Shown here: in pieces, positions 37,786-38,740 of the stretch | How positions within the stretch are numbered: position 1 is the first letter of the stretch | Layout of the letters: the number at the start of each line of letters is the position of its first letter | Source of the DNA: Escherichia phage 236Ecol005PP | Sequence record: PP434423.1 | Reading direction: 5' to 3' (one strand) | DNA: 64,000 bases | Made by a program: the position numbers and the translations under genes | The notes under the pieces: model-generated | What the model was told of the DNA's origin: nothing | What the model saw: the letters and a program-made list of their open reading frames with translations, nothing else | Databases searched by the model: none

Positions 37786-37862
37786 TTGGCCAGGGTGAAA
37801 GGATTCTAACCTTTAACCTGCGGTTTAGAGGACCGCTACTCTATACAATTGAGTTACACCCC
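37786..37862 (-). tRNA. tRNA-Arg (anticodon UCU), CCA encoded
   Basis: manual cloverleaf: acceptor CGGGGUG/CACCCUG, D ACUC/GAGU, anticodon stem GCGGU/ACCGC loop CCUCUAA, T-arm AAAGG-UUAGAAU-CCUUU. Confidence 0.75.
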
Positions 37863-37987
37863 GTAATTAGTTCACAGCAATACCTACTCCAACAATCAAG
37901 ATGTCTTCACACGAAATTAAGAGAAGAGTGATCAGTTCAACCACTATAATCGCGTCAAGTAGATATTAATGTGACAACTGTCACAAG

Positions 37988-38062
37988 TTTGGCGGACATG
38001 CATGGATTCGAACCATGGACCAATTGATTAACAGTCAACTGCTCTACCACTGAGCTACACAT
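37988..38062 (-). tRNA. tRNA-Asn (anticodon GUU), CCA encoded
   Basis: manual cloverleaf: acceptor GGAUGUG/CAUGUCC, D GCUC-AGUGGUA-GAGC, anticodon loop CUGUUAA, T-arm CAUGG-UUCGAAU-CCAUG. Confidence 0.75.
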
Positions 38063-38066
38063 CCAA

Positions 38067-38153
38067 ATTGGTGGGGAGTGATGGAGTCGAACCACCCGAG
38101 TCGCAATGACAATGGATTTACAGTCCACACCGCTACCTCTACGGGATAACTCC
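38067..38153 (-). tRNA. tRNA-Tyr (anticodon GUA), type II long variable arm, CCA encoded
   Basis: acceptor GGGGAGU/ACUCCCC, anticodon stem GUGGA/UCCAU loop CUGUAAA, variable arm, T-loop UUCGACU. Confidence 0.7.
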
Positions 38154-38165
38154 CCTAATTCGTAA

Positions 38166-38240
38166 TTTGGTGGCCCTGGGTGGAATTGAACCACCATCTG
38201 GCGATTATGAGTCGCTTGCTTGAACCTTCCAGCTACAGGG
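38166..38240 (-). tRNA. tRNA with CAU anticodon (Ile-lysidine type as in T4, or Met)
   Basis: acceptor GGCCCUG/CAGGGCC, anticodon loop CUCAUAA, T-arm GGUGG-UUCAAUU-CCACC. Confidence 0.7.
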
Positions 38241-38241
38241 C

Positions 38242-38317
38242 CTTGGTGCTGATTGACGGAATCGAACCGCCGACCTTCTCATTACAAGTGAGTTGCTCTA
38301 CCTACTGAGCTAAATCA
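38242..38317 (-). tRNA. tRNA-Thr (anticodon UGU)
   Basis: acceptor GCUGAUU/AAUCAGC, D GCUC-AGUAGGUA-GAGC, anticodon loop CUUGUAA, T-loop UUCGAUU; 1 nt from CAU tRNA (dimer). Confidence 0.75.
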
Positions 38318-38323
38318 GCAAAA

Positions 38324-38413
38324 ACTGGCGGAGGCGATAGGATTTGAACCTATGAGTCGCCGGAGCGACTGCCGGTTTTCAAGACCGGTGCATTAAACCA
38401 CTCTGCCACGCCT
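38324..38413 (-). tRNA. tRNA-Ser (anticodon UGA), type II
   Basis: acceptor GGAGGCG/CGCCUCC, anticodon stem CCGGU/ACCGG loop CUUGAAA, long variable arm, T-loop UUCAAAU. Confidence 0.75.
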
Positions 38414-38416
38414 CCA

Positions 38417-38489
38417 GTCTCCGCGGCAGGATTTGAACCTGCGACATTCTGCTCCCAAAGCAGACGCTCTACCAAACTGAGCTACACGG
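38417..38489 (-). tRNA. tRNA-Pro (anticodon UGG), CCA not encoded
   Basis: acceptor CUCCGUG/CGCGGAG, D GCUC-AGUUUGGUA-GAGC, anticodon loop UUUGGGA, T-loop UUCAAAU; 3 nt upstream of tRNA-Ser (dimer). Confidence 0.7.
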
Positions 38490-38499
38490 AGTAAATTAA

Positions 38500-38573
38500 A
38501 TTGGAGCGGATAATGAGAATCGAACTCACATCATCAGATTGGAAGTCTGAGGTAATGCCATTATACGATATCC
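38500..38573 (-). tRNA. tRNA-Gly (anticodon UCC)
   Basis: acceptor GCGGAUA/UAUCCGC, anticodon stem UCAGA/UCUGA loop CUUCCAA, T-loop UUCGAUU. Confidence 0.7.
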
Positions 38574-38579
38574 GCAAAC

Positions 38580-38666
38580 TTTGGTACGAGAAGTGGGACT
38601 CGAACCCACAAGGAAATCATTCCGCAGCATTTTAAGTGCTGTGCCTTTACCAATTTGACCATTCTC
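38580..38666 (-). tRNA. tRNA-Leu (anticodon UAA), type II
   Basis: acceptor GCGAGAA/UUCUCGU, anticodon stem CAGCA/UGCUG loop CUUAAAA, long variable arm, T-arm GUGGG-UUCGAGU-CCCAC. Confidence 0.75.
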
Positions 38667-38667
38667 G

Positions 38668-38740
38668 CGCTGGGAATAAAGGACTCGAACCTTTGCATCT
38701 AGCAGTCAAAGTGCTATGCCTTATCAACTTGGCTAATTCC
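38668..38740 (-). tRNA. tRNA-Gln (anticodon UUG), CCA not encoded
   Basis: acceptor UGGGAAU/AUUCCCA, anticodon stem UAGCA/UGCUA loop CUUUGAC, T-arm AAAGG-UUCGAGU-CCUUU; 1 nt upstream of tRNA-Leu (dimer). Confidence 0.7.

Follow-up and report, generated by a model that had tools for sequence, protein, structure and literature searches.

The tRNA locus of Escherichia phage 236Ecol005PP, located in the 64,000-nucleotide stretch of sequence record PP434423.1 that is analyzed here (hereafter, the window), comprises ten tRNA genes and, in the spacer preceding the last of them, a predicted structured element of about 100 nucleotides (nt). We interpret this locus, with considerable confidence, as the tRNA operon of Tequatrovirus in a non-T4 allelic form, with tRNAs that would serve both in codon supply and in buffering against host defenses, and with a structured element in the gap. 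The ten-tRNA array as such is already known and is the ordinary, common non-T4 state of the Tequatrovirus locus; the identical set is annotated in the record of Escherichia phage REP2, with the CAU tRNA as tRNA-Ile(CAT). The gap element is apparently undescribed.

The ten tRNA genes and the T4 locus

ARAGORN calls ten tRNA genes, and no more, across the window; all lie on the minus strand, from position 37787 to 38742. A tRNA gene was defined by an Rfam RF00005 score of at least the gathering score of 29 bits together with an independent ARAGORN cloverleaf with an anticodon, and all ten genes qualify, nine of them at 57-73 bits and tRNA-Tyr at 30.2 bits. The order of transcription is tRNA-Gln(UUG) (38670-38742; 38742-38669 in ARAGORN), tRNA-Leu(UAA) (38582-38668), tRNA-Gly(UCC) (38502-38575), tRNA-Pro(UGG) (38418-38491; 38491-38417 in ARAGORN), tRNA-Ser(UGA) (38326-38415), tRNA-Thr(UGU) (38244-38319), an Ile2-like CAU tRNA (38168-38242), tRNA-Tyr(GUA) (38069-38155; long variable arm, weak D stem), tRNA-Asn(GUU) (37990-38064; 72.6 bits) and a variant allele of tRNA-Arg(UCU) (37787-37863; 59.3 bits). 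The tRNA-Gln and tRNA-Pro genes encode no CCA: the former ends with the discriminator G and is separated from tRNA-Leu by a single C, and the latter ends with A and is followed by CU and then tRNA-Ser. The remaining eight tRNAs, including tRNA-Ser, have an encoded CCA, and only 1 nt separates tRNA-Thr from the CAU tRNA. A preliminary description of this DNA, made from the sequence alone, had folded the same ten tRNAs with the same order and anticodons, had placed tRNA-Tyr and tRNA-Asn as additions to the T4 set between the CAU tRNA and tRNA-Arg, and had noted the CCA-less tRNA-Gln and tRNA-Pro and the T4-like tight spacing (Gln-Leu, Pro-Ser and Thr-CAU). ARAGORN, Rfam and the comparison with T4 agree with it on all these points, and the finding stands also for the two additional tRNAs, which ARAGORN calls with the anticodons gta and gtt.

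The window as a whole is a Tequatrovirus segment that is collinear with T4 positions 34,062-76,000, with the usual insertions and deletions at homing-endonuclease genes. The region is 98.1% identical to that of Shigella phage TB004 and 97.4% identical to those of Escherichia phages REP2 and REP3; more than 1,000 phage records, nearly all T4-like, match a part of it, and 463 phage records contain a Tyr+Asn pair that covers at least 80% of the pair in the window. No review that tabulates how many tRNAs T4-related phages carry was found in a literature search. The array lies on one strand between the trna.2-4/ipI/57B genes and e.8, that is, in the slot of the eight T4 tRNAs, and BLAST resolves the comparison with T4 into three blocks. 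The first (39200-38231; 95% identity) includes trna.2, the tRNAs from Gln to Thr and nucleotides 1-12 of the CAU tRNA. The second (38230-37244) has no T4 counterpart and consists of the remainder of the CAU tRNA, tRNA-Tyr, tRNA-Asn, the spacer element, the variant tRNA-Arg and an open reading frame (ORF), at the position where T4 has the remainder of tRNA-Ile, segB and its own tRNA-Arg. In the third block (37243-36423), the identity to T4 is 96%.

With the T4 cluster (Gln-Leu-Gly-Pro-Ser-Thr-Ile-segB-Arg-rnaD-rnaC), the window thus shares the slot, the strand, the first six tRNAs in order at 84-99% identity, the close-spaced pairs, the CCA-less tRNA-Gln and tRNA-Pro, and rnaD, rnaC and the terminator at about 96-97% identity. 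In contrast to T4, there is no segB in the array, tRNA-Ser encodes CCA, and tRNA-Tyr, tRNA-Asn, the spacer element and an ORF with a T5orf172 domain are extra. The sequence features of a Tequatrovirus tRNA operon are found, namely, the location, the tRNA order, the close pairs, the CCA-less tRNA-Gln and tRNA-Pro and the downstream rnaD-rnaC-terminator series; the features of the T4 array sensu stricto, that is, segB between tRNA-Ile and tRNA-Arg and the T4 alleles of these two tRNAs, are missing from the window.

The non-T4 form in related phages

The tRNA regions of T2L, RB1 and RB3 were sequenced by Brok-Volchanskaya et al. 2008 (PMC2330249), who reported that T2L lacks segB and has tRNA-Met(CAU), Tyr, Asn and Arg in its stead, that tRNA-Asn holds the preferred SegB cleavage site, and that homing from T4 replaces the region in mixed infections. 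The T2L array (EMBL AJ880101) resembles that of the window in the absence of segB, in the CAU-Tyr-Asn-Arg series after tRNA-Thr, in tRNA-Ser, which carries CCAG in T2L and has no encoded CCA in T4, and in tRNA-Tyr at its 5' end, where the first 24 nt match the primer for T2L tRNA-Tyr exactly (PMC2330249). The differences, drawn from data in the same paper, are that, by the primer coordinates, T2L tRNA-Arg (about 1248) comes very shortly after tRNA-Asn (from about 1168 onward), apparently leaving no room for an element of about 100 nt; that T2L tRNA-Arg (ACGAGGCATAGCTCAGAAGG...) and the 5' sequence of tRNA-Asn differ from those of the window; and that ORFs trna.1 and trna.2 lie inside the T2L region.

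A closer counterpart is phage vB_EcoM_ACG-C40 (NC_019399; hereafter ACG-C40), in which the order is ...Tyr-Asn-element-His-Arg. This locus matches the window at 95% identity over two stretches, one running from tRNA-Leu through the whole element and the other from rnaD onward; the CAU tRNA is 100% and tRNA-Tyr 99% identical to those of the window, and the tRNA-Asn and tRNA-Pro alleles are 84% identical. Between these stretches, the window carries 4 nt, the variant tRNA-Arg and the T5orf172 ORF, where ACG-C40 carries tRNA-His, another tRNA-Arg and a 117-amino acid (aa) ORF. ARAGORN finds eleven tRNAs in the ACG-C40 region, ten of which are annotated; tRNA-His is among them, and tRNA-Gln is absent, displaced by an HNH gene. 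In T6, another Tequatrovirus, tRNA-Tyr likewise comes just after the CAU tRNA in a tRNA-rich region (PMC13096335) but adjoins segB, which amplifies it; the array in the window has no segB, and the window contains only a distant SegB-like ORF.

Identity and divergence of the individual tRNAs

The preliminary description credited the array with all eight T4 specificities. This holds for the anticodons, but only six of the tRNAs are T4 orthologues. The tRNAs for Gln, Leu and Gly are each 99% identical to their T4 counterparts, tRNA-Thr is 96% identical, tRNA-Ser falls within 96-99%, and tRNA-Pro is 84% identical, with paired stem changes. The CAU tRNA and tRNA-Arg, at 63% and 64%, respectively, are by sequence different alleles from those of T4, with the same anticodons; the CAU tRNA shares only its first 12 nt with T4 tRNA-Ile.

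The CAU tRNA is annotated as Ile in REP2 and as tRNA-Met in ACG-C40 and T2L. It has a paired G1-C72, C4-G69, C5-G68 and A73, and its anticodon stem lacks the run of three G-C pairs. The C4-G69 and C5-G68 pairs are the determinants by which Escherichia coli TilS separates tRNA-Ile2 from tRNA-Met. The segment GCGACUCAUAAUCGC, which makes up most of the anticodon arm, is identical in the CAU tRNA and E. coli tRNA-Ile2, and over its full length the CAU tRNA is 76% identical to tRNA-Ile2, compared to 66% for elongator tRNA-Met and 62% for tRNA-fMet. An initiator or elongator tRNA-Met is ruled out by the acceptor-stem and anticodon-stem features together with the Ile2 identity. The Ile2 features and identity, along with a usage of AUA that is 3.2 times that of E. 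coli, lead us to regard this tRNA as Ile2-type and as a presumed lysidine-dependent reader of AUA.

The tRNA-Tyr of the window, apart from its close match in ACG-C40, is 95% identical to the tRNA-Tyr of unrelated coliphages of about 138 kb (Phage 206, phiWec193) and about 87% identical to that of Felixounavirus-type phages. By sequence comparison, this suggests exchange of tRNA-Tyr between phage families. In tRNA-Arg, the T-loop is UUAGAAU, with A rather than C at position 56, and the D-loop contains no GG, so that the usual G19-C56 elbow pair appears to be absent or replaced. The change at position 56 also alters the GGTTCGAATCC motif that is recognized by SegB in tRNA genes.

These departures raise the alternative that some of the ten genes, above all tRNA-Tyr, are pseudogenes, with the functional set accordingly smaller than ten. 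The score of tRNA-Tyr is close to the threshold, its minimum-energy fold has no D stem, the GUA tRNA genes of Karamvirus Pet-CM3-4 and Kanagawavirus IME523, compared by annotation alone, are labeled tRNA-Pseudo-GTA, and tRNA-Arg combines A56 with a GG-less D-loop. Nevertheless, we consider this alternative improbable: tRNA-Tyr of T6 has been seen by northern blot and is biologically active (PMC13096335), the tRNA-Tyr of the window is 99% conserved with ACG-C40 and 95% with the distant phages, and tRNA-Arg forms a clean cloverleaf with 59 bits.

A predicted structured element in the spacer before tRNA-Arg

The gap between tRNA-Asn and tRNA-Arg (37989-37864) was given as 125 nt in the preliminary description and is actually 126 nt long. 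The palindrome noticed there, GTGACA (37984-37979)..TGTCAC (37976-37971), is present by direct reading, and the proposal that another small RNA might lie in the gap is partly supported by a conserved element with compensatory changes; the palindrome itself, however, accounts only for a small overlapping 5' hairpin (GUGACA-GU-UGUCAC; 37971-37984, minus strand), the 3' arm of which, GUCAC, overlaps the outer end of the closing stem of the element. This hairpin occurs in the Tequatrovirus sequences examined and is absent from the other lineages compared.

The element proper (37872-37975, minus strand; about 100 nt), delineated with RNAalifold and covariation, consists of three predicted helices: a 16-bp closing stem, P1 (37972-37957 with 37889-37874); P2, a 5-bp base (37955-37951 with 37913-37909) that bears a variable hairpin; and P3, a 4-bp hairpin (37905-37902 with 37894-37891). 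Across 14 distinct sequences, 96.6% of the cells are standard pairs, compared to 30-49% when the partner is slid. Four pairs in this set are changed on both sides (UA/CG at two P1 positions; AU/GC/UA and AU/CG in P3), and none of 500 shuffles reached the covariation score. In an alignment of P1 built by hand from the listed stem strands, with ten sequence types from eight genera, 94.4% of the positions are paired, compared to 33-51% slid, and five pairs are changed on both sides. The inner P2 part exists in two unrelated versions, module A, which contains GGGGUUGAACUGAUCAC, and module B, which contains GUAGGCAGAAGUCAUGAACCUGC; both form hairpins, and they are variously combined with the outer stems. 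Several of the conserved G-U pairs would not be standard pairs if read from the strand opposite the tRNAs, and the reverse-strand model scores at most 30 bits, compared to 110-128 bits forward; because of these strand-specific pairs and the reverse scores that are lower by about 100 bits, the modeled structure is an RNA-level feature.

The generic hallmarks of a structured RNA, that is, conserved helices, compensatory changes and restriction to one strand, are accordingly in place, with few independent lineages. Pattern scans of viral contigs yielded 5 loci and a single metagenome scan yielded 13, all near-identical to already known types, so that the statistical power stays limited. On the strength of these comparative models, we lean toward the view that the element is an RNA structure under selection in the family Straboviridae.

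Several other identities of the gap were considered and rejected. It is not a decayed tRNA-His: the "tRNA-His" annotation among the BLAST matches has just 3 nt in common with the match, and the tRNA-His gene itself follows the element. A permissive scan of the gap (37864-37989) against Rfam 15, with E-values up to 10, yielded no match, which discounts a known RNA family. A small ORF is discounted by stop codons in all frames and by TTG in place of the ATG of the relatives (direct reading), and a sigma-70 promoter or a terminator by the lack of a scan match inside the gap and by a TTGACG hexamer that is not conserved. Neither is the gap a copy of rnaC or rnaD, both of which are present downstream in the window; the covariance model of the element, R1, has no match in the T4 locus. 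The element is similar to rnaC and rnaD in being a non-tRNA sequence of about 100 nt within the tRNA transcription unit, which would share the processing enzymes, but it shows no sequence or model similarity to them, and those two are experimentally observed RNAs, whereas the element is a predicted one. No record examined carries an annotation of the element, and full-text literature searches, both with strings from its sequence and for small RNAs within the tRNA clusters of T4-like phages, yielded nothing pertinent. T4 lacks the element, and T2L and T6 also appear to lack it, judging from the primer coordinates for T2L (PMC2330249) and the gene order for T6 (PMC13096335), which may explain its absence from the classical literature.

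Distribution of the element and link to tRNA-His

The segment 37995-37873 is, in BLAST comparisons, 94-96% identical to the stretch between tRNA-Asn and tRNA-His in many Tequatroviruses and 79-87% identical to its counterpart in Karamvirus and Jiaodavirus, which lies between tRNA-Gln and tRNA-His; across genera, the element is conserved at 79-95% identity. Forms of the element are found in eight Straboviridae genera, directly upstream of tRNA-His in every relative examined, and most element-bearing Tequatroviruses have the Asn-gap-His-Arg order followed by a different ORF, as in ACG-C40. Model R1 scores 109.7 bits in Gelderlandvirus Melville and less in Moonvirus Merlin and Kanagawavirus. Merlin keeps P1 around a different, larger interior, and in Kanagawavirus and Aeromonas phage Ah1, only a hairpin of 12-13 bp with the same stem sequence is found.

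In every relative examined, the helix runs through position -1 into positions +1 to +5 of tRNA-His, with the leader sequence GUCAC or GCCAA opposite GUGGC, and in the minimum-energy fold of the ACG-C40 element joined to tRNA-His, the extended helix replaces the acceptor stem. The homology of the window to these His-bearing relatives stops after GTG, the first three nucleotides of tRNA-His; AACT (4 nt) occupies the place of tRNA-His, and the AATTAC spacer before tRNA-Arg is common with ACG-C40. Because all other lineages have the element coupled to tRNA-His, the loss of tRNA-His in the window, with the element kept, is the simpler history. The His-less group includes about ten records, of which the window, REP2 and the phage teqskov were read directly, and within it, the element is at least 95% identical. 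In P1 of the window, there is a single U-C mismatch, which is seen only in this group.

Two observations concern these neighborhoods. In teqskov (1726-1933 of the extracted locus), tRNA-Thr, the CAU tRNA, tRNA-Tyr and most of tRNA-Asn are deleted, with end-points inside tRNA genes, and the 3' end of tRNA-Asn, the spacer element, the variant tRNA-Arg and the T5orf172 ORF are kept. The phage tRNA-His next to the element (1620-1696 of the extracted ACG-C40 locus) has, by direct reading at several loci, U rather than G at position -1 and keeps C73 and an encoded CCA; its 5' flank, AUGU followed by GUGG, is the same at ten of the ten His-bearing loci. Bacterial tRNA-His normally has a genome-encoded G-1 that is needed by HisRS (PMC2995067, PMC3061083).

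Possible function of the element

A tentative reading of these models, which we hold at slightly less than even confidence, is that the element is a "His-leader", a modular, cis-acting "anti-acceptor" that gates or times the maturation of tRNA-His and is possibly released as a stable small RNA. Its core would be the long, A/U-rich helix found in at least eight Straboviridae genera, with an interior that is absent or consists of module A, module B or the larger Merlin-type insert, and this helix would cross the RNase P site unbroken into the first five nucleotides of tRNA-His. In the window, the RNase P cut at tRNA-Arg would release a predicted element fragment of about 110 nt from the precursor, and the conserved palindromic loops UGAUCA and UCAUGA would be features of a stable small RNA, if one exists.

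It is also conceivable, although in our estimate unlikely, that the gap in the window is a functionless relic, in which an element that once served the maturation of an ancestral tRNA-His is now decaying as a transcribed spacer. The fusion of the element to tRNA-His in every other lineage, the end of the window homology after position +3 of tRNA-His, the confinement of the P1 mismatch to the His-less group, and the retention of only the His-adjacent stem in Kanagawavirus and Ah1, which suggests that this helix is the functional core, would all fit such decay. Against it, all helices in the His-less group are intact except for the one P1 mismatch, and teqskov retained the element despite its extensive deletion of tRNAs, although the His-less genomes are too closely related for this retention to prove selection.

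Finally, the conserved sequence could act as DNA, that is, as an internal promoter, a target of a homing endonuclease or a recombination site. The region is a hot spot of nuclease genes and cassettes (segB in T4, HNH in ACG-C40, T5orf172 in the window and a homing endonuclease after tRNA-His in CW742), and the gap includes the TTGACG hexamer. A DNA-level role is nonetheless highly unlikely in our view: a promoter scan found no site within 37864-37989, TTGACG is replaced by TTCAAC in Jiaodavirus with the helices kept, several of the conserved G-U pairs hold only for the transcribed strand, and the inner modules have been swapped for different sequences that still form a hairpin.

Codon supply and counter-defense

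Codon and amino acid usage was derived from 96 ORFs of the window (18,373 codons; 35.2% G+C), and the ratios below are relative to reference values for E. coli. AGA is used 5.4 times as often as in E. coli and AUA 3.2 times; the ratios are about 2.7 for ACA, GGA and UCA and 2.1 for UUA. Among the codons of the two additional tRNAs, which the preliminary description proposed to examine in late genes, AAU is at 2.65 times and UAU at 2.2 times the E. coli usage in these ORFs, and Asn and Tyr make up 6.2% and 4.7% of the residues, about 1.6 times the E. coli content. The share of His is 1.8%, and CAC is used at 0.4 of the host frequency. Taken together, the codon ratios and the Asn and Tyr content fit the classical supply explanation, extended to Tyr and Asn, whereby the tRNAs of the array would top up the decoding of codons that are more common here than in E. 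coli. By analogy with T6, tRNA-Tyr at least may also buffer the phage against tRNA-cleaving host defenses.

This analogy draws on the work of Chihara et al. 2026 (PMC13096335), who showed that Septu cleaves tRNA-Tyr, that overexpression of T6 tRNA-Tyr rescues infection, and that deletion of the tRNA-rich region sensitizes T6. These results equally suggest a rival explanation, namely, that the extra tRNAs (Tyr and Asn, and His in the relatives) are primarily spares against the tRNA nucleases of hosts or competitors and not a codon supply. The tRNA-Tyr of T5 neutralizes retron-Eco7 (cited in PMC13096335), and PARIS is neutralized by a T5 tRNA (PMC11464382). The near-identity of tRNA-Tyr to that of the unrelated 138-kb phages suggests its spread as a useful cassette, and supply cannot explain the tRNA-His of the relatives because His codons are not enriched in the phage. 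Colicin E5 cleaves the set of four queuosine-family tRNAs (GUN anticodon), to which those for Tyr, Asn and His belong. Conversely, the enrichment of AAU, UAU and the respective residues makes a benefit from supply plausible as well, Septu also cleaves T6 tRNA-Tyr and protection required gene amplification (PMC13096335), and the evidence for counter-defense does not cover tRNA-Asn. Moreover, the two roles are not mutually exclusive. Counter-defense as the main role is, accordingly, possible but rather doubtful in our assessment; by analogy with the characterized phages, we rank supply combined with buffering best.

Downstream genes and transcription of the operon

Downstream of tRNA-Arg is a putative mobile nuclease gene (37211-37765, minus strand), which encodes a 184-aa protein with a MUG113/T5orf172 domain of the GIY-YIG superfamily (PF13455, 38.0 bits, cut-off 22.3; PF10544, 27.9 bits, cut-off 20) and belongs to phrog_5032 (E = 2.7e-59). 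The cassette of the variant tRNA-Arg and this ORF is common to only about ten phage records. The ORF sits within the tRNA and stable-RNA transcription unit, and it shares its final ~25 nt with the 5' end of the rnaD homologue. By alignment, the homologue of T4 rnaD (species 2 stable RNA) spans 37119-37236 (about 97% identity to T4) and that of rnaC (species 1 stable RNA) spans 36974-37112, both on the minus strand. An intrinsic-terminator-like hairpin with a U run (36900-36923, minus strand), homologous to the sequence that follows rnaC in T4, is the presumed end of the operon. In ACG-C40, ARAGORN calls a "tRNA-???" with a 2-nt anticodon within the unannotated rnaC homologue (2313-2408 of the extracted locus, corresponding to about 36970-37065 of the window); this call fits the tRNA-like 3' half of the species 1 RNA, and the copy in the window is not called.

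A scan of the tRNA strand from 38742 to 36923 found no other terminator-like site, and T4 transcription has been reported to proceed through the whole cluster to beyond the species I RNA (cited in PMC2330249). For these two reasons, the region is likely to be covered by a single precursor, which, as in T4, would be transcribed from promoters upstream of tRNA-Gln. Also by analogy with T4, host RNase P and 3' nucleases would convert this precursor into Gln-Leu, Pro-Ser and Thr-Ile dimers and then into monomers, and the host CCA-adding enzyme would complete tRNA-Gln and tRNA-Pro.

Considerations that weigh against the interpretation

Several points weigh against the overall interpretation of the locus. 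Transcription, maturation and aminoacylation are all transferred by analogy from T4, T2L and T6, and tRNA-Tyr is barely above the Rfam threshold (30.2 vs 29 bits), with a poor D stem. The anticodon loops of tRNA-Tyr and tRNA-Asn are identical to those of the host, which leaves no obvious escape from anticodon-loop nucleases. The tRNA-Tyr of T6 is relatively unstable and still cleaved by Septu (PMC13096335), and the usage ratios depend on reference codon frequencies for E. coli. As for the element, its sequence diversity is limited: the outer stems fall into about three lineages and the inner parts into two to three modules, which puts the compensatory events at roughly 5-8. Because tRNA-His is 98.7-100% identical across genera, the element and tRNA-His have probably been exchanged between genera as a cassette, which weakens conservation as an argument for function, and with its P1 mismatch and the missing tRNA-His, the element of the window could be a decaying relic.

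Other loci in the window

Outside the array, a 239-aa ORF (20207-20926, minus strand) is 27% identical to T4 SegB (E = 9e-13) and has no Pfam match; it is inserted where T4 has only about 40 bp between nrdC.9 and nrdC.10. This ORF, which lies a long way from the tRNA array, is by sequence similarity a SegB-like GIY-YIG gene. Another GIY-YIG-like ORF (2364-2987, minus strand), between the homologues of gene 47 and a-gt, scores 21.4 bits, just below the Pfam cut-off. Neither mobB nor mobC, two homing-endonuclease genes of T4, is present at its T4 position (4357-4382 and 9152-9172 in the window).

The internal-protein loci (31553-33229 and 39768-40409, both on the minus strand) are rearranged compared to T4. 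In one, the homologues of denV and ipIII are in swapped order and flanked by small ORFs, one of which starts with MKMYQEFIAEA; in the ipI slot, there are two tandem ORFs with the common N-terminus MKTFKEFINEA, which resembles a capsid-targeting sequence.

Implications

The array shows that the eight-tRNA set of T4 is a version of the Tequatrovirus locus that has been reshaped by segB homing, and it illustrates how tRNAs travel as cassettes beside nuclease genes. It is now known that tRNA-Tyr encoded by phages plays a part against Septu and retron defenses, and the array provides context for that role. The tRNA-His that is linked to the element and lacks an encoded G-1 raises the question of its maturation and charging in E. 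coli. If real, the gap element is a new structured RNA in one of the best-studied groups of phages, and if it indeed gates tRNA-His maturation, the window, with the element separated from tRNA-His, would amount to a natural experiment.

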